Shown: positions 4,766 to 34,864 of the stretch, in pieces
Position numbering within the stretch: position 1 is the first letter of the stretch
Layout: every line of letters starts with the position of its first letter
Source of the DNA: an uncultured Christensenellaceae bacterium
GTDB lineage: Bacteria > Bacillota > Clostridia > Christensenellales > CAG-1252
NCBI GenBank assembly: GCA_964561145.1
Contig: CAZLNZ010000004.1
Span: 27,047-91,046, forward strand
Length of the DNA: 64,000 bases
Direction: 5' to 3'
Notes under the pieces: generated by a model
The model's database searches: none
The model's input: the letters and a program-made list of their open reading frames with translations, nothing else
Told to the model about the DNA's origin: nothing
Made by a program: the position numbers and the translations under genes

Positions 4766-5452
4766 TTACTCATTTGCTAACTGTCTTTTTTCCATTTTTT
4801 TCCAACTTATAAATCCATAAATATCATTGAAAAGAAAAGCTACAAAACATACCACTACTGATATATAGCTTAAGTTTTCAATTGATGCCAATACCCATAG
4901 AATAATCAAGACGACGTCATTTAATGCATATCCTAAGGCAAAGAACGGACTTCTTCTAAAGGTTAAGTATACTGCGATAAAGCTTGTTGTAACCGATATG
5001 GTACTTGGTATTATATTTGCGGTATTAAAGTGTTTCAAAACGAAGTAAAAACCAAAGGTTACTAGAAAGGATAGTATAAGCATTAATATCCATTCTTTGG
5101 CGGAAAGCTTATTAACCTTAACTTCCGATTTGTTTTTTTCATAAGGATTTTTTATCCAAGTAATTAAGGCAACAATCGCCATTGGTAATGTCATTCCTAG
5201 ATAGGTTAACATTTCCCCGTAATAAGCAAAGGAGTAAGATATGATTCCATAAAGAATACTAAATACAATCATTAATATTTGCCCTATAGGATTTCCCTTT
5301 GCATTGAAGATTAATGATGTTACCCCGATAATTGATGTCGCAAGTGTAAGGTAGTTAACCCTATCAAATATAGCAAAGGATACAACTATAACCAAGACAG
5401 AGCAGGACCATAAAAGAATTTCACCTAAAGTAAAGTATTTACGTATTTTCAT
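4766..5452 (-). CDS. pnuC: PnuC-family nicotinamide riboside (or related vitamin) transporter
   Basis: About 7 TM segments and PnuC-like motifs (FNAKGNPIGQ, WIKNP, NDIYG..SW). I prefer the ATG at 5452 (RBS GGAGG) over the TTG at 5464 given in the ORF track. Confidence 0.75.
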   Translation of the reverse strand: MKIRKYFTLGEILLWSCSVLVIVVSFAIFDRVNYLTLATSIIGVTSLIFNAKGNPIGQILMIVFSILYGIISYSFAYYGEMLTYLGMTLPMAIVALITWIKNPYEKNKSEVKVNKLSAKEWILMLILSFLVTFGFYFVLKHFNTANIIPSTISVTTSFIAVYLTFRRSPFFALGYALNDVVLIILWVLASIENLSYISVVVCFVAFLFNDIYGFISWKKMEKRQLANE

Positions 5453-5558
5453 TAAAACCTCCAAAAAAATAAGGCATCTGCAAACGCTTCTTCTAAGACC
5501 TAACGAAGCGAATGCAAATGCCTTTCAACTACCCGGTGGCAGTATAATATTCATATTT
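5453..5558 (-). promoter_or_regulatory. pnuC 5' leader with a small hairpin plus a long terminator hairpin and U-run (attenuator or riboswitch candidate)
   Basis: Minus strand reads ACUGCCACCGGGUAGU, then AAGGCAUUUGCAUUCGCUUC...GAAGCGUUUGCAGAUGCCUU, then AUUUUUUU directly before the RBS. Confidence 0.5.
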
Positions 5559-5564
5559 TTCATT

Positions 5565-5593
5565 ATGATATCGTATTAAGAAAAAATTGTCAA
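5565..5593 (-). promoter_or_regulatory. Sigma-70-type promoter for pnuC
   Basis: Minus strand: TTGACA, 17 nt, TATCAT. Confidence 0.55.
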
Positions 5594-5797
5594 GTAATTT
5601 TTGCAGCTGGTATTTTAAACCATTTTGTCAATTAGGGTAAAGGATATGTCTTTTGGGAGAGTCTTTTTTTAATTTGATTGTAGTGAGAGATGATTTTCAT
5701 TCGGGAAATCTTTAAAATAATAAAAACTATTGAAATGCCGGGAGGAATAATGGTATAATATACCAAAGACTTATTAGAAAGTCTTATTAGGTGGTAT

Positions 5798-7216
5798 ATG
5801 AAAAAGATTGTAATCATTGGGTTGGGGCTTGGTGGTTTGGCATTTGTACATAATTTGCCCTATGATCCGGATTTAGATATAACTATCTATGAAAAGGAAA
5901 AATACGAGGATTTAGGGTATCCATGGTGCGACTCCGTCAGCTATGACGGAATAGCTTCTGCAGGTATTATTTTGCCTAATGATGTTTATCACCCTAAAAA
6001 ACTATTCAATATGTACTCGCCCGATATGGGCGGAAGTGTACCGCAAAGACAAAAGACGGTAGATAATGGCGTTGAACTTGATAGAAAAGCATTTCTTAGG
6101 TATATGATAGAATGTGCAAGTCATAAAGCTACCATTCATTACGGTATCGGTGTTAAGCGGTTAATTATAAAAGAGGGAGTTGTTGTTGGTTTAAAGCTAG
6201 AGAATGGTAAAAAGGTGTTTGCAGATCTTGTAATTGATGCATCCGGACCGTTAAGTCTAATTAAAAATGACGTTATTTCTCCATTGGATAAGCTAGGAGC
6301 GGATGATATTCTTTCGGGGTACAGGGCAATCTTCAAACCAAATAAAGGTGTTTTGTATCCCGATGAGGATTCTGTATATCTCAAACATTTAAACCATGTC
6401 GGAGTTTCCTGGTGCAGGACGACGCCCGATGGAAATCTAGATGTTTTTATTTCAGAAATAACCGATAAACTTAAGCTTGCTCATATAGCTTTAGCATTGA
6501 AGGATATTCGAGAGAAAAATCCCATTTTATCAGATGAGCTGATTGAAGAGCGTTTCGCTAAGCTCGTTGTAAAAAGACCCTTGTCACGTTTTGTATATGA
6601 TGGTTATGTGCTGGTCGGTGATAGTGCATACATGTCTACGCCTACATCGGGTAGCGGCATTGAGAATGCATTAAGGGCAGGACGCATTTTGGCGGAGGTG
6701 TTTTTGGATGCAAAAGGTAACACTACGGCAGATTTATGGCACTATCAAACGAGGTTTATGCGTTCGATCGGATCTAGCCTATATGCAAAGGACTTGTTTA
6801 GAAGATATGCACAGACTTTACCTGTTGAAGAGGTAAATTGGTTCTTTTCGACAATGTTTAATGGCTTTAAAGAGTTCACAGAAGCCGATTATGACAGTGT
6901 TAAGCGTATGAAAGTATATGAGTACGCCAAGAAAGCCAAAGCATTATTATCAAACAAACCGCTTTTTTCAAGCGGTACTAGAATAGCCAATCTTGCATTA
7001 AAGGCAAAGCTCCACGCTTTTATGTTGCCTGTCGAATTTGAAAAGGAAAGTTTTTTGTTGTGGCAGGAAAGGTATGCTAAAATACTAGAAGAGGGTGATG
7101 AGAACTCTTATGTCGAGCTTCTTAACGAAGAAGCTGCAGCAGATAAAGCATCAATCGGTTTTGAGGATATACAGGATAAAATACGTGAGTTAATCAAAAG
7201 AAAAAGAGGAAATTGA
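5798..7216 (+). CDS. FAD-dependent oxidoreductase (geranylgeranyl-reductase-like)
   Basis: N-terminal dinucleotide fold KIVIIGLGLGGLA and the distal motif GDSAYMSTPTSGSGIENAL. Confidence 0.6.
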   Translation: MKKIVIIGLGLGGLAFVHNLPYDPDLDITIYEKEKYEDLGYPWCDSVSYDGIASAGIILPNDVYHPKKLFNMYSPDMGGSVPQRQKTVDNGVELDRKAFLRYMIECASHKATIHYGIGVKRLIIKEGVVVGLKLENGKKVFADLVIDASGPLSLIKNDVISPLDKLGADDILSGYRAIFKPNKGVLYPDEDSVYLKHLNHVGVSWCRTTPDGNLDVFISEITDKLKLAHIALALKDIREKNPILSDELIEERFAKLVVKRPLSRFVYDGYVLVGDSAYMSTPTSGSGIENALRAGRILAEVFLDAKGNTTADLWHYQTRFMRSIGSSLYAKDLFRRYAQTLPVEEVNWFFSTMFNGFKEFTEADYDSVKRMKVYEYAKKAKALLSNKPLFSSGTRIANLALKAKLHAFMLPVEFEKESFLLWQERYAKILEEGDENSYVELLNEEAAADKASIGFEDIQDKIRELIKRKRGN

Positions 7217-10514: not shown

Positions 10515-11732
10515 TTAAAGTGAATTATTTTCGGGTATTTCGATGGTTATATCTGTAAGAGGGAAACAGGCACAAGGGTGAATAAAGGAGTTTTCCTTAT
10601 CAGCCAGTCTTCTTCCATCGGTTGAGGGCGGAGTATACACCTCGCCTTCAAGAAGTTTTGAGCGGCACCAGCCGCAAACACCGCTTTTACATCTTGACGG
10701 AGGCGCAATACCGAGTTGCTCTAGTGAGGACAAGAGTGTACGATCAGACTTAACTAAATAGGTTTGTTTTTCTCCGTGAAGAATTATGGTAACATTAACT
10801 TGTTGTTCTTGTATTCTTCCGACTAGCTCTCCCTCCTTCTCAGGAGTTAAAGCATATTCTCCGAAAATCTCGAAGCGTATGAATTTTCTTCTTATATTAA
10901 GTTTTTCAAGTTCCTTCTCTTCGTATCGGTATAAGCCTTGAGGTCCGCATAGGAACACTGAGTATTCTGTCTTCCGCGGTGCATATTTTTTAATAAGCTC
11001 TGCGGAAATAAAGCCTTTTTCACCTCCTTCGATATCGTCTTGCTCTAATACATATACAACTTTAACTTTGTCGGTTTGGCATTGGATTTTATCGAAGTCA
11101 TCTTTGAAGAGTATATCGTTCTTGGATTTATTGCCGTAGAGGAGAATAAGCTTAACATCTTCGTCCCCTTCTGCGATACTTTTTGCAAGGGAGTGGAAGG
11201 GAGTTATTCCGCTTCCGCCTGCTATACCGATAATTGTATTAGCATCACGAAGTCTCTCAAAGGTAAAGTTCCCGAGTGGTGCGGATACCTCGATTTCGCT
11301 GCCTATATCCCAGTTATCCAATACATAATTTGAAACCAGATTATGGTCATTTCTCTTTATTGTAATCTTGTATTTTCCTTCCAAAGCCTCCTTTGGTGAG
11401 GAGGATAGAGAGAACGGTCTAGTGAAAAGCTTATTATTGATTCTTACGTTAACGGATATATACTGTCCGGCACTGAAGTAAGCAAGCTTTCTAGTACCCT
11501 TTAGAATGTTAGGAATAAGAGTGAAGGTTTTAACATTAGTGTTTTCCTCTTCGATTTTACTTATTTTAAGATGTTGTGTTAGAGGATGGAGTTCTTTTGC
11601 CAAAAGGTTTGGTTTGTATGTTGAAGGGGTCTTCACGCTTTTATCCAGAGTACCTTTGATAATCTTTTTTCTAGTGAAAATATTATTTATGACTTTCAGT
11701 CTTGAAATCTTTTTGATATCGGATTTTGCCAT
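10515..11732 (-). CDS. Ferredoxin-NAD(P) reductase-like flavoprotein with a C-terminal plant-type [2Fe-2S] domain
   Basis: FAD motif RPFSLSS, NAD motif GIAGGSGITP, and C-terminal CKSGVCGWC...C. The start codon follows the upstream gene's stop codon directly, with no gap. Confidence 0.8.
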   Translation of the reverse strand: MAKSDIKKISRLKVINNIFTRKKIIKGTLDKSVKTPSTYKPNLLAKELHPLTQHLKISKIEEENTNVKTFTLIPNILKGTRKLAYFSAGQYISVNVRINNKLFTRPFSLSSSPKEALEGKYKITIKRNDHNLVSNYVLDNWDIGSEIEVSAPLGNFTFERLRDANTIIGIAGGSGITPFHSLAKSIAEGDEDVKLILLYGNKSKNDILFKDDFDKIQCQTDKVKVVYVLEQDDIEGGEKGFISAELIKKYAPRKTEYSVFLCGPQGLYRYEEKELEKLNIRRKFIRFEIFGEYALTPEKEGELVGRIQEQQVNVTIILHGEKQTYLVKSDRTLLSSLEQLGIAPPSRCKSGVCGWCRSKLLEGEVYTPPSTDGRRLADKENSFIHPCACFPLTDITIEIPENNSL

Positions 11733-13241
11733 TTACTTGCCCTCCTTTAGCTCTTGAATGACCGCTGTAGCTGCCTCTTTCCCTGAGGAATAGGAGCAAG
11801 AGAAACCGTCACCCTTACTTTGGTGGCCACCGCAGAAATGTAAATTTTTGATTTTTTGCTCAGAAAAGGCACAAATTGTTCGATTTATTATGTTATCCCA
11901 GTCTGATACCTTGTAGCCATATACTTCTCCCATTGGTGTTCCAAGGTACCTTGCAAAGGTTACTGGTGTTGCAATTGAAATTTCTTCAATATGTGAGATT
12001 ACGTCTATACCGACTGTTTCGGCGTAGTCTCTAATATATTTCTCGGCAAGGTCGTTTTTATATTCTTTATACTTGTCTGCAGTAAGTGAATTGGGAATAT
12101 CCTCTCCCAGAAGAGGAATGGTAAAGAAAAGGGTACAGGTACCTTCGGGGGAAGCGTCCTCGACGACATTTTCAAGACAGTTAACGACATAGGCTCCCAT
12201 ATTTGTCCGATTATCGTATTGAACACGAGGATTTCCGTCTTTAAAGATGAAAAGACTGTAATCCTCGATCCCGAGTTCTTCACGTGAAGCATCCAACCCG
12301 AGATAAATTGTTAAGAAGGAAATGCCGAACTCTCTGGCATTTGCGAGCTTGATATTATATTCGGGCACTTTGTCGCTTAGTTCATAAACGACATCGGGCA
12401 TTATATTTGCGATAACTTTTTTAGCGTATATTTTTTGTCCCGACGCCTCAACACCTATACACTCTCCTTTTTTTCCATAAAGAAATTTTGTAACCGGAGT
12501 ATTATAAAATGCCTCGCCACCAAATCTTTCGAAGGATTTATCCAGCTCAACCGAGAGTGCGAAAGATTTGTTCCTAGGCATGGCAATAGGCGAAGCAACA
12601 TAGCTGCCCAAAAGGGTGAGAAAGTGCGTTGCGCATAGCTCATCGGTAGGCACGCCCAAATATGCCCAGTAGGTGCACAGAATTTGCTTAGCTTTTTCGG
12701 GAATATTCAGTTCGTTCATTATTGCTTCGGTGCTCGTACCGCTTGCTCTGAGAAAATCCCCATACTTAGTGATGAGCTTCATCGGATTAATCTTTCCTCC
12801 ACATTCATCCATATACTTGAGGGTATCAAAGATGTTATGAATGATCTTGAAAAGCTTTGTTACGCTTTCCCGAGAGCCCGGAACCTCGTCTTCTATTGCT
12901 TGAATAAAATTATTTTCTCCGGTAGGGAGTTTTACATCAAAGCCATCGTCACCCTTGCAAATCACTCTATAGGCATACTCGTCAAAACGCCAATCAATGT
13001 TAATCCCGAAATCGGCAAACATTTTTGTAAGATTGTCCGTATTGTCCAAAGTAATTCCCGATAGTTCATGAAGGGATGCCTCGAATTCAAAGCGTCCTCT
13101 GACAAAAGAGGTCGCACAGCCACCCGGAAGATTGTGTTTTTCAAAAAGGGCGGTTGAAAGACCTGCTTTTGCACATTGGTTAGCGGCAACAAGACCTCCG
13201 TTGCCTGCACCTACTACAATAACATCATAATTATTTTTCAT
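11733..13241 (-). CDS. CrtI/phytoene-desaturase-family FAD-dependent oxidoreductase
   Basis: N-terminal YDVIVVGAGNGGLVAA...E....GG and a length of ~500 aa, typical of the CrtI-like family. Confidence 0.75.
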   Translation of the reverse strand: MKNNYDVIVVGAGNGGLVAANQCAKAGLSTALFEKHNLPGGCATSFVRGRFEFEASLHELSGITLDNTDNLTKMFADFGINIDWRFDEYAYRVICKGDDGFDVKLPTGENNFIQAIEDEVPGSRESVTKLFKIIHNIFDTLKYMDECGGKINPMKLITKYGDFLRASGTSTEAIMNELNIPEKAKQILCTYWAYLGVPTDELCATHFLTLLGSYVASPIAMPRNKSFALSVELDKSFERFGGEAFYNTPVTKFLYGKKGECIGVEASGQKIYAKKVIANIMPDVVYELSDKVPEYNIKLANAREFGISFLTIYLGLDASREELGIEDYSLFIFKDGNPRVQYDNRTNMGAYVVNCLENVVEDASPEGTCTLFFTIPLLGEDIPNSLTADKYKEYKNDLAEKYIRDYAETVGIDVISHIEEISIATPVTFARYLGTPMGEVYGYKVSDWDNIINRTICAFSEQKIKNLHFCGGHQSKGDGFSCSYSSGKEAATAVIQELKEGK

Positions 13242-13367: not shown

Positions 13368-13396
13368 TTGACTTGGCATTTCAAAAATGTTAGAAT
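13368..13396 (+). promoter_or_regulatory. Sigma-70-type promoter upstream of the YbjN-like gene
   Basis: TTGACT, 17 nt, TAGAAT. Confidence 0.5.
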
Positions 13397-13429: not shown

Positions 13430-13831
13430 ATGTTTAATACAACTCAAAACTTTATCAACGAATTGAACGCAAGGGAACTTACTTATAACTTTAATGAAAA
13501 CGGCAACAATGAGCTTGTTTCCATTGGTTTTGACAAATTCACGCTTCTGTGCATCTTTAGCGGAGAGAAGGGTGAGTATTTCACCATTTTCACCAGCTAT
13601 GCCCACTGTGAAAAGGATAAGTCCTTGGATGTTATCATTGCACTAAATCAACTCAACGCAACTTATAAGTGGACAAAGTTCTATCTTGATAAAGATAACG
13701 ATATCATCATTGATACCGATGCAATCATCGATGAGGAAACAAGCGGCGACGAATGCTTTGAGTTAGTTGCTCGTTTTGTAAACATCATCAAGGAAGCCAA
13801 CAACGATATCATGCGTGCTATTTACGCATAA
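13430..13831 (+). CDS. YbjN-like (type III secretion chaperone-fold) small acidic protein
   Basis: 133 aa. Pattern of N-terminal helix, beta-sheet and C-terminal helix, with ..F.I....Y.....D.D.....I..D.. as in the YbjN family. RBS AAGGAG. Confidence 0.5.
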   Translation: MFNTTQNFINELNARELTYNFNENGNNELVSIGFDKFTLLCIFSGEKGEYFTIFTSYAHCEKDKSLDVIIALNQLNATYKWTKFYLDKDNDIIIDTDAIIDEETSGDECFELVARFVNIIKEANNDIMRAIYA

Positions 13832-13922
13832 TAGAGGTATTGGTTGACAACAAAAGCTTTAATTATTAAGTCAAGATCCTCTTTGATGGGGGATTTTGAC
13901 TTTTTACAAAAATACAAGGATA

Positions 13923-16900
13923 ATGAAATTATATAAGTTAACTTTTTTCCCGTTATTTAGTAAAGATTTTAAAGATGCCTCTCTTGGTATATGGACTCAT
14001 TTAAAGGAACTTATCGAGGGCAATTCTTCTTGCGGACTTGTTGATTGGAATGGTGGTTCAAGGAACGCAATTTGTCTTGTTGCTTCAGGGTTAACGCAAA
14101 AGGAAATTTCTTCTCTCGTCTTGGGATACATTGCGGAAACCGATGATAAAAACCAATTCGGTATTACAGTCAAAGCGGAAATACTTAGCAAGGAAGACAT
14201 TGAAAAACTTAAGGCGGAAAACGAACGCTACGTAAATGACGAGCGTATCAATTCTTGTCTCGAGGAAACCGATGTTAATAGTATTGAAAAGCTCGATACT
14301 ACGGAAACCTTAGCTTCCTATAGTGATTCTGACAAGTCGGAGGATAAGGCACCTGATGAAAACAAAGAGTCTACCGATTCGACTAATGATAATAATATGT
14401 CGGTTGAGCCTTCTTCGATTGGTACCAATAAGCCGCTCCATGGTTTCAGTATGAGTGGTAAAGCCTCATTGAAGAAAAATGAAGAGGATAACGTAGAGCA
14501 AAATCCTCCAAAGCCTGAAACTCTGTCCGAGCTTATTAAGACGATTGTCGATTTGAAGAACTATCTATTAACAAATGTTAAGGGACAAAGACATGCAATC
14601 GATGTTTTTACTCAAGGAATATTTGAAACGGAAGCTTTTACCTCTCATAATTCGAAAAGAAAGGGTGTCGAAGCACTGTTTTTGTTTGCCGGACCTTCCG
14701 GTGTCGGTAAAACCTATTTGGCTGAGTTAAGTAAAGACGTTTTGGCAAGACCCTTCTTAAGAGTTGATATGAGCGAATTTAGTGATAATCTCGCAAATAT
14801 GAATTTCAACGGAGAGCATGGCAGCAAGAATATGGTAACGGGTTTTGTTAATAAGAATCCTAAGTCGATTATACTTTTCGATGAGATCGAAAAGGCACAT
14901 ATTAATACCATATATTTGTTCTTGCAACTTCTCGATGCGGGGCGGTTGTTTGACTATAAACTCAACAAGGAAATATCTTTTAAGGACGTTATCGTTATTA
15001 TTACAACAAATGTCGGAAAGAGCTTATATGAAGATCCAACCAGATTCGATTTGTCTACAATTCCTTCGAGTACTGTCCTTGATGCACTCTCAAAGGAGGT
15101 CAATCCTCAGAATAACTCTGAAGCCTTCCCCAAGTGTATAGTAACAAGAATGGCAAACGGAAACGTCATTCTTTTCAATCACTTGGAGCCATATGCGCTT
15201 CGTTCTATAATTGAAAGAGAGATAGCAACACAATTTGAGATATTTGAAAAAGCTTACGGAGTTACTATTGAGTATAATCCGGAACACTTGAGTGCTTTAG
15301 TTCTATATAAAGGTGGTGGTTTCTCTGACGCAAGGACCTTAAGGGGTATGGCTAGAGGAATGGTTAGTAAAGAGCTGCACGATGTAATCAATCAAGTTTT
15401 TGTCAAAAAGGGCAACATTACAGATATCAGAAAGATTAAGTTTATCGTTGAGCCGATGAAGTTTGATGAAGAGATTAAGAGCTTATTCTCTGTTACTAAG
15501 AAGTTGCGTGTTTTGGTTTTTGCTGCCGAGGAGGACGAGTCGGTCATTAGAGAAGGAGCCCCTGACAATATCGAACTTGTTTTTGCACAAGACTTAAATG
15601 ACCTTAAGAAGAAGATCAGAGGGGTTTCGGATTATGTTCTTCTCGATGTCTGCAGAGGCTATGTAAAAGGTGCAAGAATTCCTTCGGATATAGAGGATTT
15701 AGAAACCGAAGGAACTGAAGCATTCCATTATATCCAAGAGTTTTATCCCGAGATTCCCATTGAGCTTCTCAATACAAGGAATGGAAGCGAGGATACCTTC
15801 GCAACACTATTAGGTAAGGGTGCAAGAGGTGTTATCAAGCTGAGAAAGGGAAGAGCCTTTAGACGTGATTTGGAAGAGCTCACTTTTGCAGCCTTGGTTA
15901 ACAACGGAACTTTTGAATTAGCAAGGGCAGGAAAGGTGTTATCCTATAACTGTGCTCAATATGTTTCAAAAAATACAGTTACCATTTCCTTTAATCGTTT
16001 AAAACTGATTCCCGCTCCCAGTGCGGAGGATTCTCAGCATATAAGAAAGAGCGGACAGGATATCACTTTCAAGGATGTATCCGGTTGTAGTGAGGCAAAG
16101 AAGACCTTGATGGAATTTGCAGGGTATCTTGATAATCCTCGTGAAATGGCAATGAAGGGAAAGAGAATGCCAAAGGGCGTATTGCTTTACGGACCTCCGG
16201 GAACGGGCAAAACCTTACTTGCAAAAGCAATGGCAAACGAGTGCAAGGCGACATTTATTCCAACAACGGCGACAGCATTTTTTAATCCATATGTCGGTGT
16301 AAGTGAGCAGAACGTTAGGGATGTTTTCCAAAGAGCAAGAAGATATGCTCCGTCAATAGTTTTTATTGACGAGGTAGATGCAATCGGAAGGAACAGAACA
16401 GGAGCATCAAATTCTTCTCATGTGGAGTCTGTGTTGAATGCGTTTATTGCAGAAATGGACGGATTTATCGTAGATGAGAAGCGTCCTGTATTTATTCTTG
16501 CCGCAACCAACTATGAGATTAACGGACCGGGCGAACGAGTTTTAGATAAAGCTTTCGTAAGAAGATTTGACAGAGCGATTTTTGTAGATCTTCCCAATGA
16601 AGAAGAGAGGGCGGAACTCTTGTCGAAGAAACTTGCAAAACATGGTATAGTAGGTTTTGATAATGCATTGAAGAGCCTTGCGGAAAGGTCGGGCGGAATG
16701 AGTTGCGCCGAACTTGAGATGATGATAGAGTTCGCTTTAAGAATGGCGGGTGATAATGAACTTAATGAACAAATGTTGATTGAATCACTGGATGCCTACC
16801 GTTACGGAGAAGAGAAGGAGTTTGAGCCGGATAATCTTCGTCAAACGGCTTGTCACGAAGCAGGTCATGCATTGTTGAATTGGTTGTCGGGTGATATACC

Positions 16901-17354
16901 CACCTATCTAACGATAGTGTCGAGAGGTAATTTTGGCGGCTATATGCAAAGAGCAGAAGATAAGAGAGGCACTTTATCACGTAAGGACATATTGTCAAGA
17001 CTACGTTGTTCATTAGCGGGTAGAGGCGCAGAATGTGTTGTTTACGGAGATGGTGGAATAAACACCGGGGCTTCTTCGGATTTAGAGCATGCCAGATTCT
17101 ATATTGACTTGTATTTTAGAGATTTTGCGATGGGTGACAATCTATATGCGAAAACAGAAGATGCCGATTTAGAGAAAGCAATCAAAGCCGAATACGATAA
17201 CACCTTGCGTCTAATCGAGGCTAATCTAGACGTTCTCAACGAATTAACCGATTGTCTTGTTGAAGAGAAGTGCATGGATGAAAAACGTTTGAGTGAATTC
17301 TTCGGAAGTAAAACACCGATCCTTCCGGAGCTTATAGACATTCAGACAATATAA
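13923..17354 (+). CDS. Soluble multidomain AAA+ protease: N-terminal domain, acidic linker, ClpB-D2-like AAA+, receiver-like domain, FtsH-like AAA+, M41 metalloprotease
   Basis: First ATPase: GPSGVGKT, IILFDEIEKAH, ITTN. Second ATPase: GPPGTGKTLLAKA, IVFIDEVDA, pore-loop YVG. Protease: HEAGHAL and GASSDLEHA. No TM segments. I prefer the ATG at 13923 (AGGA upstream) over the TTG at 13896. Confidence 0.85.
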   Translation: MKLYKLTFFPLFSKDFKDASLGIWTHLKELIEGNSSCGLVDWNGGSRNAICLVASGLTQKEISSLVLGYIAETDDKNQFGITVKAEILSKEDIEKLKAENERYVNDERINSCLEETDVNSIEKLDTTETLASYSDSDKSEDKAPDENKESTDSTNDNNMSVEPSSIGTNKPLHGFSMSGKASLKKNEEDNVEQNPPKPETLSELIKTIVDLKNYLLTNVKGQRHAIDVFTQGIFETEAFTSHNSKRKGVEALFLFAGPSGVGKTYLAELSKDVLARPFLRVDMSEFSDNLANMNFNGEHGSKNMVTGFVNKNPKSIILFDEIEKAHINTIYLFLQLLDAGRLFDYKLNKEISFKDVIVIITTNVGKSLYEDPTRFDLSTIPSSTVLDALSKEVNPQNNSEAFPKCIVTRMANGNVILFNHLEPYALRSIIEREIATQFEIFEKAYGVTIEYNPEHLSALVLYKGGGFSDARTLRGMARGMVSKELHDVINQVFVKKGNITDIRKIKFIVEPMKFDEEIKSLFSVTKKLRVLVFAAEEDESVIREGAPDNIELVFAQDLNDLKKKIRGVSDYVLLDVCRGYVKGARIPSDIEDLETEGTEAFHYIQEFYPEIPIELLNTRNGSEDTFATLLGKGARGVIKLRKGRAFRRDLEELTFAALVNNGTFELARAGKVLSYNCAQYVSKNTVTISFNRLKLIPAPSAEDSQHIRKSGQDITFKDVSGCSEAKKTLMEFAGYLDNPREMAMKGKRMPKGVLLYGPPGTGKTLLAKAMANECKATFIPTTATAFFNPYVGVSEQNVRDVFQRARRYAPSIVFIDEVDAIGRNRTGASNSSHVESVLNAFIAEMDGFIVDEKRPVFILAATNYEINGPGERVLDKAFVRRFDRAIFVDLPNEEERAELLSKKLAKHGIVGFDNALKSLAERSGGMSCAELEMMIEFALRMAGDNELNEQMLIESLDAYRYGEEKEFEPDNLRQTACHEAGHALLNWLSGDIPTYLTIVSRGNFGGYMQRAEDKRGTLSRKDILSRLRCSLAGRGAECVVYGDGGINTGASSDLEHARFYIDLYFRDFAMGDNLYAKTEDADLEKAIKAEYDNTLRLIEANLDVLNELTDCLVEEKCMDEKRLSEFFGSKTPILPELIDIQTI

Positions 17355-17361: not shown

Positions 17362-17387
17362 AGGGCTTCAACTCGAAGCCCTTTTTG
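17362..17387 (+). terminator. Intrinsic terminator after the AAA+ protease gene
   Basis: AGGGCTTC-aactc-GAAGCCCTTTTT. Confidence 0.75.
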
Positions 17388-17394: not shown

Positions 17395-18303
17395 ATGAAG
17401 GAACAAAGAAGTTTTATAAAAATAATATCGGATATTGCAAGTACCGAAGGATACACGCTTGAGACATATGGCGGCGGTTGGCTCCTTGAATTAAAAAACG
17501 GAGAGGATCGCTTATTGCTGCACGGATATAAGTTCCCTGTAAATGATGCTTCTGCCAGCACTCTTGCCGATGATAAAGCAACGCTAAGCGAGTTTCTTAT
17601 GCTTCACGGAATACCGCAAATTCCCCATTATTTTATCGATTGTAGAGGGGGTTGGCAGAAAATCGAACCTCTAGCACTATCACAGTTTAGGCAATACCCT
17701 GCCTTGGTGATAAAACCGAACAATGGTACCGGCGGGCAGAACGTGATGTTTGTAAATACGATGGAGGAGCTTAGGTTATGTGTGGAAAAGCTATCTAAAA
17801 TATATGATATGCTTGCCCTTTCTCCTTACGTTGAAGCAGAGGCGGAGTACCGAGTAATCATCTATAACGGAGAGGTCGAAATATCATTTGAAAAAATTAG
17901 ACGTGTTGTTTACGGAGACGGAATTACCACTATTGGAGAGTTATCTAAGGGTGAGTACACAGACTTCCCTTTAGATTACATCCCACGAAAGGGCGAAAGG
18001 GTTTTACTTACAAAAAAACATAATTTGGGCTTGGGTGCAGTTCCAAAGACGATTGAGTCCAATGATAAAGATAAGATATTTGCACTTGCTAGAAAGGCTA
18101 TCAAGGTATCAGGCTTAAGCTTTGCATCGGTTGACATTTTAAGGGTTAAGGGCGAATTGTACGTTATTGAGATTAACAGTGGAGTTATGACAGAGCGGTA
18201 TTCGATGATGAGTAATGATAATTATGAAAGGGCAAGGGCAATGTACTCAAGGGTAATCAAGGATTGTTTCATGAAAAATAAAGGAAAAAATTCACATTCT
18301 TAA
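17395..18303 (+). CDS. ATP-grasp domain protein (RimK/ligase-like)
   Basis: LVIKPNNGTGGQNV, EYRVIIYNGEV and SVDILRVKGELYVIEINSG are typical ATP-grasp strands. Confidence 0.7.
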   Translation: MKEQRSFIKIISDIASTEGYTLETYGGGWLLELKNGEDRLLLHGYKFPVNDASASTLADDKATLSEFLMLHGIPQIPHYFIDCRGGWQKIEPLALSQFRQYPALVIKPNNGTGGQNVMFVNTMEELRLCVEKLSKIYDMLALSPYVEAEAEYRVIIYNGEVEISFEKIRRVVYGDGITTIGELSKGEYTDFPLDYIPRKGERVLLTKKHNLGLGAVPKTIESNDKDKIFALARKAIKVSGLSFASVDILRVKGELYVIEINSGVMTERYSMMSNDNYERARAMYSRVIKDCFMKNKGKNSHS

Positions 18304-27807: not shown

Positions 27808-30800
27808 ATGATTAAGCTCTTTTTCGGAAACACAATCGAAGGCTGTACAAATGCCATACTTTCCTCAATAAACGGGGATAGACAAGCTATCGTAATCGCG
27901 CCCGATAGTTATTCTTTTGCTATTGAAGCCAATATTTCGAAGTTGGTTGCACGGAGTATGGATATAGAGGTTATGACCTTTGCACGTTTTGCGATGAGAT
28001 TACTTGGAAGTAAAATAAATAAGTGTTTGTCTCCGGAAGGCTGTAACATGATTATGTTAAGGGCAGTTGCCGAATGTGAGAAGGATTTGACTTATTATAA
28101 AGTGTCCTGTGCCAAAGAGGGCTTTGCCAATGAAATATACAGTTCAATAACAGCCATGCGTTCAAGTGGAATAACTGCGGAAAGGCTTTTAAGAACCTCG
28201 GAAGAAATGACCTGTTTTTCAAAGAATAAAACAAGAGATTTGGCGATAATACTAAGTTCATATTTAAGGCTTATGGAAAATAGGTATACCGATCCCATAA
28301 CAAGACTCGAAGCATTATGTCATGAGATTCCGCATAACGAGTATGTAAAAGATACGGATTTTTATATTGTTGACTTTTATGCTTTTAACGACAAGCAATA
28401 TGAGGTTCTTTCTGCTTTAATGAAGTATTCGCATTCTTTTAATATTGGCATCCTTGACGGTGGAGGATTATCTAACTTCAGTGTATTTCCTTTGGATACT
28501 TCAAAAAGGATAGTGGAGCTCGCAAAAGGGGCGGGCACACCTGTACAGCGTATCAATTCCTATAGGGTTTTGGATGAATTTGCTTCCGTTATCAATGAAA
28601 AACTATTCGGAATACCGGATAGCGGTTTTTCGCTAGGTAAGGTGAAGCTTAGACTAATACAAACTCCTTCTCCTCAAGATGAAGCGGACGGTGTTTGCAG
28701 AGAGATTGCAAAACTTGTAAGAGGCGGGTTGAGGTATAAAGATATAGCAGTTGTATCGGGTGACTATGACGATGCAACATTGGAGTCAACTTTTAAGGAC
28801 TATAATATACCCTATTTCTTGGATAGAAAATCTCCTATTACAGATGAGCCGGGTGTAAAACTTATCACAGACAGTGTTCAAGCAGCCGCCAAGAGGTTAG
28901 AGTTTAATGAAATCATGGCGGTTGTCAAAAATCCTTTGTCGGGAATTGCCGATGAAGAGGGAATGCTTTTTGAGAATTATTGTTTAAGGTATGGTATTAA
29001 TTACACAAGATTCTCCTCTCCTTTTGAGCTGGGGACTTTTGAGGAACGTTCTATACCGGAGAAGGTAAGACAAATCGTGACGGAACTTATTCCGAATTTA
29101 CCGGAAGAAGGTGTGGTAGCTGTATATGTTGACCTGATAAGGGAGCATTTGAATAAGATAGACTTCGATTTTAATCTTCAAAGTTTTTTAGATAGAGAAC
29201 TTGAACTTGGTGAAGAGCTTGCAGCCAAAAGAACAGTTCAGCTTCCCGAGAGAATACGGGGAGTTCTAGATATGATGGAGGAACTACTAAATGACTTTAG
29301 TATTAACCTTCAAGGTTTTGCAACTCTTATTTTTAATAGCTTCAACAGTGTAAAGCTTGCTTTGATTCCTTTAAGTTCCGATTGTGTTCACATTGGAAAG
29401 GCGAGAGATTGTAGATTTGAGGAGGAAAAGGTATTTTTCTTTACCTCTTGTGCAGAGGGTAAAATTCCGGAATGTACCGCTGACGGAACGATCTTAAGCG
29501 CAAAATATCATCAAGATTTGCAGATGTACGATATGGTTATAAGACCGAGTGTAAAAGAGGATAATAGGTATGCTAAGTATTCTCTAATACAGCTATTGAA
29601 TACACCGGAACGTATTTACATAAGCTGTCCCGAGAGGGCAAGCGATGGGACGATATGGAATAAATCGGAGATTTTTTCCTCCCTTTCGTCGTTATTCGGC
29701 GTAAGGCTCGAGTATGGTTTTTCCCATGAACTATTTGAACAAGCTGTTACTCAAAAGGAATGTGCTAGAATGGTGTCATATGGATTGAGTCAAGCAGATG
29801 ATAACTTTAACTATTATAGCGGAGTTTACTCTATCCTGGAGGGCGATTATAAGGACAAGATAGCTTTATCCTTAAACCCCTTCTCCGATGATATAGAAGG
29901 CGGAGAGCTTTTCTTTACGATGGGTAATACAAGCGTATCTCAAATTGAAACGTTTTATAGTTGTCCCTATAAATTTTTCTTACGATACGGCTTGAGAGCT
30001 AAGGAAAGAGATGTTCAAGAGGTGCAAGTGAACGAGAGCGGAACTTTTACACACGCAGTTTTAGAGCGACTTCTGGATCGTTACAAGGATAGTATAGATG
30101 AGCTTGATGAAGGACTGATTATATCTGTTGCCAATGAAATAGGTGAACAGCTACTAGCTAGCGACGATAGGTTGAAAGGTCTATTAAAGGGAGAGAGTGA
30201 AAGGAAGATTCTTAATATGAAAAAGAATGCTTGCCTTGTTTGTGTAGAAGTAGTACGCATAATCAAGAAAGGAAAATTCCGTCCTATAGGAACAGAGGTA
30301 AGCTTTGGATTTAAGGAAACCACTTTTAGAGGGGTAGAACTACCGCAAGGTACAAGGATAGTCGGTACTGTCGATAGAATAGACAGTTGTGACGGAAGGG
30401 TTATAGTTATTGACTACAAAACGGGACGGACCGAGCCTGAACTGAAGAGTATATTTTACGGAAAAAAGCTGCAGTTGTATATATACTTGTATGCACTTCG
30501 TCAGGCAGGCTTAAAGCCCTCCGGTGCTTTTTATCAAAAGGTTGAATCGAGATATGCCAAGACCGAGGAAAAGGAGCGTTTCCGTTACGAAGGCTATTTC
30601 ATAGATGACAGTTACTTTTTTACGCTGATGGATCAAGGACTTTTCGAAGAGGATAAAAGCAGTGTCCTGGATCTAGATCTTGGAGCAAAGAACAAGAGTA
30701 AATACGCCCTATCCGAAGATGATTTTTCAAAACTGATTGATTATTCCTATAGAATGGCGGCGAGGGCAGAGGAACTTATCAAGAGCGGATATACAAAGGC

Positions 30801-30903
30801 AACTCCATTGGAACATGCTTGCGACTATTGTCCTATCAAAGGCACATGTAGTAAAGATAAACCGCAAAGAAAGGCTTTGACTAAAAAGGTTGGTGATTTC
30901 TAA
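27808..30903 (+). CDS. addB: Helicase-nuclease AddAB, subunit B
   Basis: RecB-type nuclease motif VDRID...VIDYKTG. Fe-S cysteines SCPYKF ... CDYCPIKGTC. Position immediately upstream of addA. Confidence 0.9.
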   Translation: MIKLFFGNTIEGCTNAILSSINGDRQAIVIAPDSYSFAIEANISKLVARSMDIEVMTFARFAMRLLGSKINKCLSPEGCNMIMLRAVAECEKDLTYYKVSCAKEGFANEIYSSITAMRSSGITAERLLRTSEEMTCFSKNKTRDLAIILSSYLRLMENRYTDPITRLEALCHEIPHNEYVKDTDFYIVDFYAFNDKQYEVLSALMKYSHSFNIGILDGGGLSNFSVFPLDTSKRIVELAKGAGTPVQRINSYRVLDEFASVINEKLFGIPDSGFSLGKVKLRLIQTPSPQDEADGVCREIAKLVRGGLRYKDIAVVSGDYDDATLESTFKDYNIPYFLDRKSPITDEPGVKLITDSVQAAAKRLEFNEIMAVVKNPLSGIADEEGMLFENYCLRYGINYTRFSSPFELGTFEERSIPEKVRQIVTELIPNLPEEGVVAVYVDLIREHLNKIDFDFNLQSFLDRELELGEELAAKRTVQLPERIRGVLDMMEELLNDFSINLQGFATLIFNSFNSVKLALIPLSSDCVHIGKARDCRFEEEKVFFFTSCAEGKIPECTADGTILSAKYHQDLQMYDMVIRPSVKEDNRYAKYSLIQLLNTPERIYISCPERASDGTIWNKSEIFSSLSSLFGVRLEYGFSHELFEQAVTQKECARMVSYGLSQADDNFNYYSGVYSILEGDYKDKIALSLNPFSDDIEGGELFFTMGNTSVSQIETFYSCPYKFFLRYGLRAKERDVQEVQVNESGTFTHAVLERLLDRYKDSIDELDEGLIISVANEIGEQLLASDDRLKGLLKGESERKILNMKKNACLVCVEVVRIIKKGKFRPIGTEVSFGFKETTFRGVELPQGTRIVGTVDRIDSCDGRVIVIDYKTGRTEPELKSIFYGKKLQLYIYLYALRQAGLKPSGAFYQKVESRYAKTEEKERFRYEGYFIDDSYFFTLMDQGLFEEDKSSVLDLDLGAKNKSKYALSEDDFSKLIDYSYRMAARAEELIKSGYTKATPLEHACDYCPIKGTCSKDKPQRKALTKKVGDF

Positions 30904-33900
30904 TGGGTTGGACAATAGAACAGCAAAAAGCCATAGACTTTAAGGGCAATTTGATAGTTAGTGCATCGGCAGGCTCAGGAAAAACCTCGACCATGATAGC
31001 ACGTGCGATTCGTCTTATAACCAAGGAAAGGGTCCCTGTAGAGAGGATAATGCTTTTAGCTTATAATAATGCTGCTGCGCTTGAATTAAGGGAAAAGCTT
31101 CGACAAGGCTTATTGAATTACGGAAAGGAAAACCCTTTTGAAGGAATGTACATAAGAGAGCAGCTTGATAATTTGTACTTAGCAGATATAAGCACTATTC
31201 ATGGTTTTTGTTTTAAGCTTATACGAGAATTTTTCGAAGAAGCCGGTGCCTCTCCGTCAATAGCGGTCCAATCTCAAGAGGAAGAGAGTGAGAATATAGC
31301 CAAGGCTGCAAAGAACACCCTTGCAATTGTTGAAAAAGATGCTGAAATACGCACTTTAATGAATAAGTATTCTTTGAAAAATGACGACTCCTTTATAAAC
31401 TCTATAATTACTTTGTACAATTATACAACCACACAAGCTGATAGAGAGGGCTTTTTAAGAGCATGCGAGGAAGCGTATCTTGTACCGCTTGAGGAAAGTC
31501 GGACAGTCAAGTATTTCATTGGTTATTATCGGGATATGGCAATGAAATATACAGACTATTTCAAAGAAATACTTTTGTTTGTTCAGGAATATGAAAAGGA
31601 TTCAATCCCGTTTGTTTCAAATATTTATGAGATAGTCGAAAGGTGTAGTAGGGTATCTAACTTAAAGGAGTACTGTACATTAGTGCTAAATCCTCCTTCC
31701 TTTGGTCGTGCAAAGAAGGGTGAAATGGACCCGCTACTATACAATAAGATTATCGCTGCAAGGGATTCCTTTAAGAGTCATTATCTTACAAAACTAAAGA
31801 GCTTTCCTTCATATGCCGAACTAGAGGAGGGGCATAGGCTGGCAGCCGATCATGTCAGACTACTTCTTAAGGCTGTTAGGGTATTTGAAAGGGAGTATGA
31901 TAAACTAAAGGCTGAACAGAATAGAATTGACTTTCAGGATATGGAGCGTTATGCCGTAAAGCTGTTATCTGATGAAGGGCTTAAGGCAGAGATTCGTGAC
32001 CGTCATGATTATGTATTCGTCGACGAGTATCAGGACGCCAATGCGGTACAGGAAAGTATAATAACTTCGATTACAAAGGAAGGACGACTTTTCTTGGTAG
32101 GAGATGTCAAGCAAAGCATCTATCGTTTTCGTCTAGCCGAGCCCAAGATTTTCCTTAAGACATATGAGGAATGGCGTAAGGCGGGGAACGCTCTTAGCTT
32201 TAATAATAACTTCCGTTCCGACTGCGGAATTTTGTCCTTTGTTAATAACTTATTTGAGAATATAATGATTCCCTCTTTTGGAGGTATTAATTATAAAGAT
32301 GACGGAGCCTTTATTATTTCTGAAAACAAAGCAACGGGAAATATACCAGCTGTTAGTATTCTTTCATATCCTCAAGCCGCACTTACCGCAATGAAACTTG
32401 CCGCAAAGGATGAGAGGGAAAGCAGAACTGACAATCTATATATCGATGATAATGGAAACACCGTTTATGATATATCTCAAAATATAGAAGTCGAGCTTGA
32501 TGAGGATTACAACGAGGCAAGCATAGTGCTGGATTATATAAACAGCGTAAGAGGAAAAGAGGTGATTGTAAAAGGCAATAGAATAGTCGTTGACTATAAA
32601 CATATAGCAATTCTTTTCCAAAAGAGGGGAGATGCTAAGGTAATACTGTCTGCATTGGCGGCAAAAGGAATCCCCCTTAATTTAGGTTCCTTTGAAGGTA
32701 ATATAGGAGAGGTACAACTCAATGTATTAATTGATTATCTATCGGTGATTGATAATATTTACGATGATTATTCGTTGATAACATCATTGCACTCATTTAT
32801 AGGAGGTTTTTCCAACAATGAGCTAAAGTCTATAAGGCTTAAATACTTAAATAAAATGAGTTTTGCAGAGGTCTGTTTAAAGTATTCTAGGGAGCAAGAT
32901 ACCGAGTTGGCAAAAAAACTTAGAAGTTTTTTCAACAAGGTAGAAGCTTTTAGATTCAAAGCCTCTTTTACGGAACTATCTACATTTATCAAAGAGGTGA
33001 TGGAAGAGAGCGGTTATGCAACATATGTTGTCTCTCTTGAGAACGGCATTAATATAATATCTGCACTCAATGGATATATCAAGGGGTTAAAGGGAAAAAC
33101 ATATGCACGTAATCTATCGGGGTATCTGAAGCACTTTAGAGAAAACGAACCGCCCGAATTAAAGGCACTGAGTTCTGTAGAAAACGGCATAGTAATTAGT
33201 ACATTACATGGAAGTAAAGGCTTAGAGTATCCTATTGTAATATTAGCAGAACTTGATAAGACCTCAGGCGGCGGAAATATGCAGAGTATATTGACAGACA
33301 GAGATTTGGGTGTGGGTTTCGATTTCTTTAAGGATGAAGGAAGGCAGAAACTTGCGACAATCGATAAAATGGCAATAGGATTGAAAAAGCGACTTGATGA
33401 GAAAATGGACAAGTTGAGACTTTTTTATGTTGCCACGACCAGACCTCAATCAGCACTTTGTATTATATGCGATGTCAACAAGGAATCCCCGTTTTCAGTC
33501 GAAGAGTGCAATTGTATGGGGGATTACGTACGTCTTGCTATTAGTAAGAACGAAGAATTAAAAAAGGTGATTCGTTATGTTTCTCCCGAAAAGATAGAGC
33601 CGGAAGAAAGGCGAAGGGAATTAACAATTACAGATATTGATTGCCCCGAAGAGGTTTTAGAGGTATTGTCATATAAGTATCCTTATTTAGAGGCAACTAA
33701 AACAGCTAGAAAATATACGGTTTCCTCTCTTAACAATGAAGATTTAGGCTATACCTTGAGTCCTGTAAGTGTTGAAGAGGAGAGAAACGTATTAGGTACC
33801 GCTCATCATGCAGTAATGCAGTACATAGATCTATATGCTGACAGCGAAGAGGAAGTTAAAGCGGAAATAGAGAGAATGTGTTTAAGCGGTTTAATAGACG

Positions 33901-34271
33901 ACGAAACTGCAAAGAGTATAGATATAGACGAGATTTTAGGCTGTTTAAAGTCACCTGTAATTGCAGAAGCCAGGGTATCCGATTGTTATAGAGAAAGACG
34001 ATTTGTATTAAGGAAGAGTGCAAGAGAACTTGGCATATCAGATACGGATGAGAACGTTTTAGTTCAAGGAACAGTTGATATGCTTATAGTTGGAGAGCGT
34101 ATTATAGTAGTTGATTTTAAGAGAAGCAAGTTATCGGATGCAAAGCTAAAAGAACGCTATTCAACGCAATTAAAGCTATACGGCGAGGCGGTAAAGTCAA
34201 CCTTTGGTAGGTATCCCGATAAGCTTTTACTGTACGTGCTTGGAAGAAATAGTATAGTCGAAATCGACTAA
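30903..34271 (+). CDS. addA: Helicase-nuclease AddAB, subunit A (UvrD/Rep-type helicase plus RecB nuclease)
   Basis: ASAGSGKT, VDEYQD, TLHGSKGLEYP, C-terminal GTVDMLI...VVDFK. TAATG overlap with addB. Confidence 0.93.
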   Translation: MGWTIEQQKAIDFKGNLIVSASAGSGKTSTMIARAIRLITKERVPVERIMLLAYNNAAALELREKLRQGLLNYGKENPFEGMYIREQLDNLYLADISTIHGFCFKLIREFFEEAGASPSIAVQSQEEESENIAKAAKNTLAIVEKDAEIRTLMNKYSLKNDDSFINSIITLYNYTTTQADREGFLRACEEAYLVPLEESRTVKYFIGYYRDMAMKYTDYFKEILLFVQEYEKDSIPFVSNIYEIVERCSRVSNLKEYCTLVLNPPSFGRAKKGEMDPLLYNKIIAARDSFKSHYLTKLKSFPSYAELEEGHRLAADHVRLLLKAVRVFEREYDKLKAEQNRIDFQDMERYAVKLLSDEGLKAEIRDRHDYVFVDEYQDANAVQESIITSITKEGRLFLVGDVKQSIYRFRLAEPKIFLKTYEEWRKAGNALSFNNNFRSDCGILSFVNNLFENIMIPSFGGINYKDDGAFIISENKATGNIPAVSILSYPQAALTAMKLAAKDERESRTDNLYIDDNGNTVYDISQNIEVELDEDYNEASIVLDYINSVRGKEVIVKGNRIVVDYKHIAILFQKRGDAKVILSALAAKGIPLNLGSFEGNIGEVQLNVLIDYLSVIDNIYDDYSLITSLHSFIGGFSNNELKSIRLKYLNKMSFAEVCLKYSREQDTELAKKLRSFFNKVEAFRFKASFTELSTFIKEVMEESGYATYVVSLENGINIISALNGYIKGLKGKTYARNLSGYLKHFRENEPPELKALSSVENGIVISTLHGSKGLEYPIVILAELDKTSGGGNMQSILTDRDLGVGFDFFKDEGRQKLATIDKMAIGLKKRLDEKMDKLRLFYVATTRPQSALCIICDVNKESPFSVEECNCMGDYVRLAISKNEELKKVIRYVSPEKIEPEERRRELTITDIDCPEEVLEVLSYKYPYLEATKTARKYTVSSLNNEDLGYTLSPVSVEEERNVLGTAHHAVMQYIDLYADSEEEVKAEIERMCLSGLIDDETAKSIDIDEILGCLKSPVIAEARVSDCYRERRFVLRKSARELGISDTDENVLVQGTVDMLIVGERIIVVDFKRSKLSDAKLKERYSTQLKLYGEAVKSTFGRYPDKLLLYVLGRNSIVEID

Positions 34272-34606: not shown

Positions 34607-34864
34607 TTTTTTATACCTACGGATACAAATATTCTTGAACTTTTGCATTTATCGATGCTGAATCCATTTTCTGTGGTGTTTCGATCCCAAAAAAACTAAT
34701 TATTTTTAATGTAAAGGTTGATATATTCACTATTTTATTCTATAATTAAAATATCGTAAATGATCAATAATGCCATCGTCTGTCTTCTCGGGTGAAAATC
34801 ATTATGGCATTACTTCGTGCTTCATATACAATAGAGAACCTTATATGGGAAAAGGAGTCAATTG

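Follow-up and report, generated by a model that had tools for sequence, protein, structure and literature searches.

The ATP-dependent proteases taught for bacteria are ClpXP/ClpAP, HslUV, Lon and FtsH, to which some lineages add the proteasome. FtsH (TIGR01241; MEROPS M41; known from Escherichia coli, Thermotoga maritima and Thermus thermophilus and as mitochondrial AFG3L2/YME1) carries a single AAA+ module, and a review defines its family as membrane-anchored (PMC9020784). Here we describe a locus in a 64,000-nucleotide (nt) stretch of DNA from an uncultured Christensenellaceae bacterium (assembly GCA_964561145.1, contig CAZLNZ010000004.1; the whole stretch is hereafter called the window), where a gene for a small YbjN-like protein is followed by a gene for a soluble double-AAA+ M41 metalloprotease (Table 1). 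From its N-terminus, the protease contains a predicted ferredoxin-like N-domain, an acidic linker, an AAA+ module of the Clp/Hsp100-D2 type, a receiver-like domain with a beta-hairpin, an FtsH-type AAA+ module and an M41 domain. We favor, with somewhat better than even confidence, the reading that the locus is a two-gene unit, in which a cytosolic ATP-dependent zinc metalloprotease of an undescribed Clostridia-wide family is encoded together with a YbjN-type chaperone-fold partner. What is new here is a widespread, uncharacterised family of soluble double-AAA+ M41 proteins that have a receiver-like domain built in and a YbjN-type partner of their own. The evidence consists of sequence comparison and predicted structures (AlphaFold2, AF2), and motif conservation was counted over 119 aligned homologues.

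The C-terminal part of the protease is of the FtsH type. A classical AAA+ module with a hydrophobic-Val-Gly pore loop, an EMDGF motif and a second region of homology (SRH) is common to both, as is its direct fusion with an M41 domain that has HEXXH and the Asp ligand, and the best two-part matches in the PDB are FtsH chains, whose alignments reach approximately residue 1081 of the protease. The Pfam models AAA (residues 753–889, 1e-45) and Peptidase_M41 (971–1073, 1e-17) and the NCBIfam model FtsH_fam (705–1072; profile positions 150–519 of 598) match in this order, which bears out the complete FtsH-type AAA+ and M41 protease of a preliminary description of this DNA. In the FtsH-type module, Walker A (757–764), the pore loop PYVG, Walker B (D816/E817), EMDGF and an SRH with VRRFDR were located, and GPPGTGKT, F[IV]DEVDAI, AATNY...AFVRRFD and the pore motif are kept among the homologues. 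The YVG of the pore loop, which had been pointed out before, is present in the window protein but specific to its clade; the family consensus is LVG. The M41 site is H978-E-A-G-H982, CHEAGHAL and NTGASSD are conserved, HEAGH and Asp1053 (TGASSD) in at least 90% of the sequences, and Asp1053 is presumably the third zinc ligand, as we take from the established FtsH structures. The protease differs from FtsH as follows: First, FtsH has N-terminal transmembrane helices and a periplasmic domain, whereas the present protease has neither. Its maximal 19-residue Kyte-Doolittle mean is 1.28 and therefore no transmembrane segment is assigned, as had been described. Second, it has ~700 extra N-terminal residues, comprising the N-domain, the linker, an AAA+ module of another clade that precedes the FtsH-type one, the receiver-like domain and the hairpin. 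Third, its scores are well under the curated NCBIfam cut-offs, namely 273.9 versus 600 for TIGR01241 and 189.7 versus 1008 for PRK10733.

The first AAA+ module shares with the D2 modules of Clp/Hsp100 proteins (ClpA, ClpC, ClpB and ClpV/TssH) the AAA_2 large domain, Walker A/B, sensor-1, the Arg, sensor-2 and the D2-small domain. Pfam AAA_2 (PF07724) matches residues 252–375 with 95 bits against a cut-off of 27, and the D2 halves of the NCBIfam models of ClpA, TssH/ClpV and ClpB align to residues 201–501, through the end of the small domain (ClpA model positions 445–724 of 734), again at a score well under the curated cut-off (114 versus 993 for ClpA). Walker A (residues 257–264, GPSGVGKT), Walker B (D320/E321 in FDE[IV]EKAH) and sensor-1 (N363 in TTN) are near-invariant, Arg409 (...TRMANG...) and sensor-2 (ARTLR, within DARTLRG) are conserved, and the column identity of the module is 60–80%. 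In contrast to Clp/Hsp100 proteins, only a D2-type module is present, with neither an Hsp100 D1 nor a Clp_N nor an M-domain (no Pfam or NCBIfam match to Clp_N or D1 in the protease), and the protease domain is fused in cis. The ClpP-docking tripeptide IGL/IGF is missing as well; in the alignment with the D2 structure of ClpA in the PDB, IGL falls on D-L-S. In the same alignment a 5–6-residue deletion falls on GYVGF, so that the GYVG pore-1 loop is swapped for a shorter, strictly conserved KFNGEHG. The earlier assignment of a ClpB-D2-type module thus stands with respect to AAA_2, the D2-small domain and Walker A/B, but not with respect to the canonical pore loop. The other elements listed for the protein are in place: its ~1140 residues (1143 aa in an uninterrupted open reading frame (ORF)) follow the proposed domain order with Pfam and NCBIfam calls in place, and the quoted motifs GPSGVGKT, ILFDEIEKAH, GPPGTGKT and HEAGH are all present and, with the SRH and Asp1053, 90–100% conserved (the second counted as FDEIEKAH). 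Judged from these residues, both AAA+ modules look catalytically competent and the M41 site looks intact.

This conservation bears on the alternative that ATP-driven remodelling or disaggregation is the protein's main activity, in which the Clp-type ring does the real work and the protease and/or the receiver is vestigial, as a pseudo-enzyme or pseudo-receiver. The high column identity of the Clp-type module and the degenerate active site of the receiver (see below) would fit such a protein, as would the Pfam M41 match in the window protein, which spans only the first 110 of 191 profile positions. Other family members match the full M41 profile, however, HEAGH and the Asp of TGASSD are retained, and it is the pore loop of the Clp-type module that is non-canonical. 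We therefore regard a remodeller as very unlikely and retain the metalloprotease.

Two ATPase tiers that feed a proteolytic chamber are also present in ClpAP, Cdc48/p97-20S and PAN-20S, whereas here all tiers and the protease lie on one polypeptide and the tiers come from different AAA+ clades. A soluble arrangement of two AAA+ modules, the second of the FtsH type, is likewise found in the computationally described 'FtsH ternary systems' of Kaur, Burroughs, Iyer and Aravind (2020), for which a regulated role in conflict was proposed (PMC7159879). In those systems, which occur in deltaproteobacteria, actinobacteria and planctomycetes, both modules are FtsH-type with the first one dead, and MoxR and vWA genes are obligate (PMC7159879). 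The present family, by contrast, is found in Clostridia, and its first module is a Clp-D2 type whose Walker A/B are intact; neither MoxR nor vWA neighbours were among the top 25 most recurrent families in a census of 125 neighbouring ORFs. No PDB chain spans both AAA+ modules, and NCBIfam, Pfam, PADLOC and PHROG hold no family for the whole protein. PADLOC-DB 2.0 returned only partial generic AAA+ matches (IetA, DolB, TRIP13), each to one module, and none for the YbjN-like protein. Literature searches for YbjN with FtsH, for soluble, cytosolic or tandem FtsH, for M41 with AAA_2 and for FtsH-like anti-phage proteins did not find the architecture described. The preliminary description had presented it as new unless it already was a named family, and no name, structure or paper was found.

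The protease ORF runs uninterrupted on the + strand from TTG 13896 or ATG 13923 (MKLYKL...) to 17354. Because ATG 13923 follows an AAGGA ribosome-binding site by 5 nt and aligns with the first Met of 39 homologues, we adopted it as the start codon, which gives the length of 1143 aa. The possibility that a frameshift or an assembly error joined a Clp-like and an FtsH-like gene, which had been named as a risk, can be put aside as practically nil. The same module order and a conserved junction recur in hundreds of full-length homologues that come independently from assemblies of NCBI, ENA, JGI and Logan. A search that covered 5.8 billion proteins found more than 118 full-length relatives of 1044–1178 aa with ~45–53% identity, and three more with 83–92%. 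A profile of the receiver and hairpin, run exhaustively against 1.84 billion cluster representatives (50% identity), matched 200 clusters (125 at E<=1e-10), nearly all of them proteins of 1000–1250 aa with the segment at ~450–700. Since this junction segment is conserved and family-specific, a frameshift fusion is ruled out. By their source names, from which the taxonomy was taken, the relatives are called only "AAA family ATPase" and come from Ruminococcaceae/Oscillospiraceae or Clostridia metagenome-assembled genomes, and a second search, started from a distant member, brings in Lachnospiraceae, Eubacterium and Clostridiales. Across the branches, the region from the Clp-type module through the C-terminus is 35–39% identical.

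The middle segment between the two AAA+ modules matched nothing meaningful in Pfam or the PDB by sequence profile, nor did the N-terminal segment. An AF2 model of residues 495–715, calculated with 40 diverse homologues, reached a mean predicted local distance difference test score (pLDDT) of 86.2 and a predicted template modelling score of 0.75, and consists of one strand and one helix, five beta-alpha units and a long beta-hairpin. When the model was compared with the PDB by Foldseek, the top 50 matches were all response-regulator receiver domains (E from 1.7e-5, probability 1.00), among them NtrC1, NtrX, HupR, DctD, LuxO, YycF, PhoP, CpxR and RssB, with target-normalised template modelling scores (TM-scores) of 0.6–0.8 for isolated receiver-domain chains. 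On the predicted model, the receiver fold of the segment, which had been read as a CheY-like alternation from the letters, is confirmed, and homology to receivers is likely. We also aligned the family by hhalign to five classical receivers, whose own alignment shows the expected invariant D13, D57, T87 and K109. In this alignment the family motif D-Y-V-L-[LI]-D falls on the canonical beta3 motif and Asp575 on Asp57 of CheY. Asp575, at the acceptor position, and Asp570 are present in 119 of 119 sequences including the window protein. The other active-site positions are partly conserved: position 535 after beta1 is a lone acidic residue (D/E in 76%; Ala in the window protein, followed by E536-E537-D538), position 618 after beta4 is T/S in 84% (Thr in the window protein) and position 639 after beta5 is R/K in 60% (Lys in the window protein). 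The beta3-alpha3 loop contains a 14-residue insert (residues 581–594, window 15663–15704) with an invariant P-N-D-I-E-D; this acidic cluster near Asp575 could be a binding site for a metal or a basic partner, either in place of a phosphoryl group or in addition to it. The hairpin follows the last helix of the receiver and joins the FtsH-type module, and within it N676 and Q679 are invariant and C677 and Y680 near-invariant. CheY-like domains that lie beside an AAA+ ring or act on an AAA+ protease are found in the enhancer-binding proteins NtrC1, DctD and NtrX and in the ClpXP adaptors RssB and CpdR. In contrast to these, the present receiver lies between two AAA+ modules of a protease, has the large acidic insert in beta3-alpha3, shows no Response_reg sequence match and keeps the active site only in part. 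The only kinase in the window, a histidine kinase (HisKA and HATPase_c; 52–1443, + strand), lies 12 kb upstream of the locus and is followed by two ~230-aa ORFs, and no link between it and the receiver-like domain was found.

The N-domain, which had been called an unknown domain of ~100 aa, retains that size and now has a predicted fold. An AF2 model of residues 1–112 (pLDDT 86.3) shows a ferredoxin-like fold with additional short helices. Foldseek gave weak, mixed matches to this model (IS200 transposase, HPPK, PII-like and bacterial microcompartment shell proteins; TM-score <0.6 with large root-mean-square deviation), which are generic to the ferredoxin fold, and we do not claim a specific homology. 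A hidden Markov model of the N-domain matched the window's clade throughout (118 of 118), but no protein among the 115 of the P0139 branch and only 4 among 105 full-length representatives; these clade-restricted matches make the N-terminal region the variable part of the family. It is presumed to be a docking site for a substrate or partner. The acidic linker fits its earlier description, having 24 D/E and 33 S/T/N in residues 101–200, a variable length, alignment columns with 22–67% gaps and ~5% identity, and from this composition it is probably disordered.

To our knowledge, YbjN-family proteins have no defined function even in E. coli. Type III secretion chaperones are known to pass their clients to a hexameric ATPase (e.g. 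InvC), which strips and unfolds them. The fold of YbjN/AmyR/DR1245 is related to that of the class I type III secretion chaperones (PMC5398634, PMC3575483, PMC9503650), and the present locus is similar to the secretion systems in that it pairs the gene of an unfoldase with that of a small protein of chaperone fold. The hosts here, however, are Gram-positive anaerobes with no secretion system nearby, and an AAA+ protease takes the place of the RecA-like secretion ATPase. The protein encoded upstream of the protease gene, which had been described as 133 aa long and YbjN-like, matches PF10722 at 1.8e-7 with 31.8 bits (cut-off 22; profile positions 26–118 of 126) and has a weak PDB match to DR_1245, and its ATG at 13430 is preceded by the ribosome-binding site TAAGGAG. 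We examined 24 distinct protease loci, obtained from exact-protein look-ups and a metagenome scan. Among the 21 with enough upstream sequence, 17 have a ybjN-like gene directly upstream on the same strand, with a gap of 33–305 nt as measured to the longest ORF start. The linkage holds at locus L030, where the protease is only 37% identical to that of the window. The partner proteins are 30–42% identical to the window's YbjN-like protein, and the orthologues at other loci also match PF10722. Thus, comparison of the loci supports the YbjN-like gene as a true conserved partner of the protease gene. At locus L029, a Trigger_C neighbour was considered as an alternative chaperone partner and rejected, since its lipoprotein-type signal peptide makes it extracytoplasmic.

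A feature specific to the present subfamily, as compared with YbjN/AmyR/DR1245, is the C-terminal aromatic motif, [ILM]-[YFW]-[AGS]-COOH, which ends 17 of the 18 partner proteins (...AIYA, ...ALYS, ...AMWA). The variants among loci L004 to L030 are IYA, LYA, IYS, IYG, IFG and MWA, and one protein ends in IYGL. This C-terminus resembles the proteasomal HbYX (hydrophobic-Tyr-X) docking motifs or a non-polar degron; in the proteasome comparison, the difference is that the docking-like motif is here on the small partner. Canonical FtsH recognises non-polar C-terminal tails such as the ssrA tag, and together with the tight gene pairing and the near-uniform motif this would be compatible with the YbjN-like protein being a labile, controlled substrate or inhibitor, its C-terminus acting as a degron in a protease/anti-protease switch. 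A conserved, folded chaperone-type domain exceeds what a degron needs, however, and the motif fits a tethering peptide equally well, as in SspB and ClpX. We consider the substrate or inhibitor role rather improbable and prefer a partner that handles clients.

Upstream of both genes lies a sigma-70-like promoter candidate, 34 nt 5' of the YbjN-like start. The statement that the YbjN-like gene has a promoter of its own is consistent with this candidate, which probably drives both genes. A further promoter-like site at 13896–13924 was rejected for the protease gene, which it cannot serve because it overlaps the start codon. Behind the protease stop, a GC-rich hairpin was scored by the scan on the minus strand, the + strand reading AGGGCTTCAACTCGAAGCCCT followed by TTTT. 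With an A-run and a T-run on its sides, it is probably a bidirectional intrinsic terminator, as predicted from its sequence, and its location fits a two-gene transcription unit. An ATP-grasp gene (RimK/ATPgrasp_ST-like; window 17395–18303, + strand) begins 40 nt 3' of the protease gene, and at L007 an ATPgrasp_ST gene (4826–5860) fills the upstream slot where ybjN usually sits. The window gene was considered as a third component of the unit (a tagging ligase, say) and rejected on account of the terminator-like hairpin in between and the lack of recurrence: the two ATP-grasp proteins have no detectable similarity to each other, and no further locus has such a gene. Their proximity to the protease genes may be coincidental, or may reflect a possible connection between a peptide ligase and the protease.

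Table 1 Features of the two-gene locus in window coordinates.
Feature	Position	Strand	Residues	Basis or remark
Sigma-70-like promoter candidate	13368..13396	+		TTGACT-17-TAGAAT with TG extension; consensus scan only
YbjN-like gene	13430..13831	+	133 aa	Pfam PF10722; type III secretion chaperone-type ('TY-chaperone') fold family
YbjN-like C-terminus	13811-13831			...IMRAIYA
Protease gene, soluble double-AAA+ M41 metalloprotease	13923..17354	+	1143 aa	ORF, Pfam, NCBIfam, homologue alignment
N-domain	13923..14222	+	1-100	Predicted ferredoxin-like beta-alpha-beta-beta-alpha-beta (AF2)
Acidic Ser/Thr/Asn-rich linker	14223..14522	+	101-200	Composition and alignment gaps
Clp/Hsp100 D2-type AAA+ module and small domain	14523..15422	+	201-500	Pfam AAA_2, NCBIfam ClpA, PDB ClpA D2 alignment
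Divergent receiver (CheY-like) domain	15498..15926	+	526-668	AF2, Foldseek, hhalign
Long beta-hairpin	15933..16013	+	671-697	AF2 secondary structure; motif NCAQY
FtsH-type (classical clade) AAA+ module	16035..16772	+	705-950	Pfam AAA, NCBIfam FtsH_fam
M41 zinc metalloprotease domain	16800..17351	+	960-1143	Pfam Peptidase_M41, PDB FtsH alignments
GC-rich hairpin	17362..17382	.		8 nt past the protease stop; A-run and T-run on its sides

How the parts would work together can be proposed by analogy. The protease would form a hexamer like FtsH and other AAA+ proteases, and the FtsH-type ring with its hydrophobic-Val-Gly pore loop would thread the substrate into the M41 chamber. The Clp-type ring would hydrolyse ATP and is most likely an upstream tier for engagement, remodelling or gating rather than a classical Clp translocase, while docking would be supplied by the N-domain and the acidic linker. 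Relatives of the YbjN-like protein bind extended peptides, and it would most likely be an adaptor or anti-adaptor that delivers or withholds a client; it could be tethered by its C-terminal hydrophobic-aromatic-small motif in the way that SspB is tethered to ClpX by its C-terminal peptide. The receiver-like domain would probably be an allosteric switch coupling a signal to ring assembly or to inter-ring coupling, as in NtrC1-type activators; phosphorylation of Asp575 could provide this signal, as could a partner protein or a ligand or metal at the PNDIED loop.

Several observations weigh against this scheme. First, GYVG is missing in the Clp-type module, which makes a two-tier translocation path uncertain, and ~200 residues lie between the AAA+ modules, unlike in the stacked rings of Hsp100 or p97. 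The stacked Clp-like two-ring translocase that had been envisaged is thus not established, its Clp-type pore loop being shortened and non-canonical. Second, no match of Pfam Response_reg to the middle segment appeared at E values up to 10, the receiver conserves its acidic pair and Lys only in part, and no HisKA/HATPase_c gene recurs beside the locus in the neighbour census, so that of the possible phospho-receiver the fold and the invariant Asp575 are upheld and phosphorylation is not established; the middle domain may serve structure alone, as a pseudo-receiver. Third, L007 and L010, both of the window's clade, have no adjacent ybjN, and by its sequence the YbjN-like protein could be an adaptor, an inhibitor or a substrate.

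The neighborhoods and sister branches of the family suggest where such a switch might be used. On the same AAA_2-receiver-AAA-M41 core, P0250, P0211, P0236 and P0251 carry N-terminal Ser/Thr kinase domains (one also with TPR), P0235 an N-terminal DarT1-associated NADAR domain and P0233 a C-terminal RNase H1-type hybrid-binding domain. The NADAR form (L026) adjoins cas6 and two small overlapping genes of unknown function. At L028 (P0353; 2722–4981, 11257–13495), FHA and TIR-Ser/Thr-kinase genes precede the protease gene with a gap of 20 nt, and HTH, RyR-domain and TIR-NLR-like genes lie downstream of it; as a group they suggest a candidate multi-gene cassette for signalling or defence. A complete Shango system (SngA/TerB, SngB and SngC helicase; PADLOC E to 1e-280) is directly downstream of the protease gene at L007 (9519–14538), and the protease genes at L011 and L012 have TIR and CARF-nuclease genes around them. 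Genetic ties thus link the core with phospho-signalling and, at a minority of the loci, with defence islands, though not at the window locus.

From these associations, the family could be viewed as a signalling-coupled conflict or anti-phage component, with the protease as effector or regulator that an infection or stress signal would switch on, the variable N-domain or the YbjN-like protein as sensor and the receiver-like domain as switch. The non-syntenic position of the protease locus between genomes would suit this role, as would the presence of TY-chaperones in conflict systems centred on ADP-ribose (PMC9503650). Housekeeping genes, however, surround the window locus and most of the YbjN-linked loci (amino-acid metabolism, glycoside hydrolases, MutS, ProRS). 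The census of flanking ORFs by Pfam and PADLOC found these to be mostly housekeeping genes as well, with no recurrent defence family and, besides ybjN, no neighbour recurring at more than three loci. The PADLOC matches to the protease are generic, and a scan of viral contigs with the receiver-segment profile found no relative. We hold a conflict role to be possible but doubtful, and for the window the two-gene protease and partner unit remains our preferred reading. Tubulin_2 (bacterial tubulin-like) genes were also seen near the protease gene in two unrelated loci, probably by chance.

A wider proposal, which we make tentatively and regard as unlikely to hold, is that the family adds a separate class to the AAA+ proteases of bacteria. 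Such a protease would be a two-tier machine gated by a signal, made up of the Clp-type ring, the embedded receiver switch, the FtsH-type ring and the M41 chamber, and loaded with specific clients by a type III secretion chaperone-like adaptor, its core wired in the various branches to Ser/Thr kinase, FHA, TIR and NADAR components as an effector under the control of phosphorylation or nucleotide signals in stress or anti-invader responses of gut Clostridia. Set beside the protease types taught for bacteria, the family would stand as a soluble derivative of FtsH that has a second motor of another AAA+ clade, an internal receiver-type domain and a dedicated chaperone-fold partner, and the kinase-, TIR- and NADAR-linked sister forms could join regulated proteolysis to bacterial signalling or immunity. 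The family is abundant in gut and rumen Clostridia, where proteostasis has been little studied, and offers a natural system for the cooperation of two unlike AAA+ rings, the gating of an unfoldase in cis by a receiver and the role of YbjN-family proteins.

The remainder of the window contains AddAB, a P-type ATPase, ProRS and glutamate dehydrogenase, and the AddB/AddA (RexBA) helicase-nuclease pair (27808–34271, + strand) marks it as ordinary chromosomal DNA of a Firmicute. A giant ORF of 2430 aa (34862–42154, + strand) has four DUF6273 repeats with no further Pfam match and probably encodes a large surface or secreted protein. Divergent from the ybjN promoter region are two genes (10515–13241, - strand), one for a 502-aa flavin adenine dinucleotide (FAD)-dependent oxidoreductase (phytoene-desaturase/amine-oxidase-like) and one for a 405-aa protein of the ferredoxin-NAD(P) reductase type with a 2Fe-2S domain. 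This pair recurs in L004, a relative with 92% identity.

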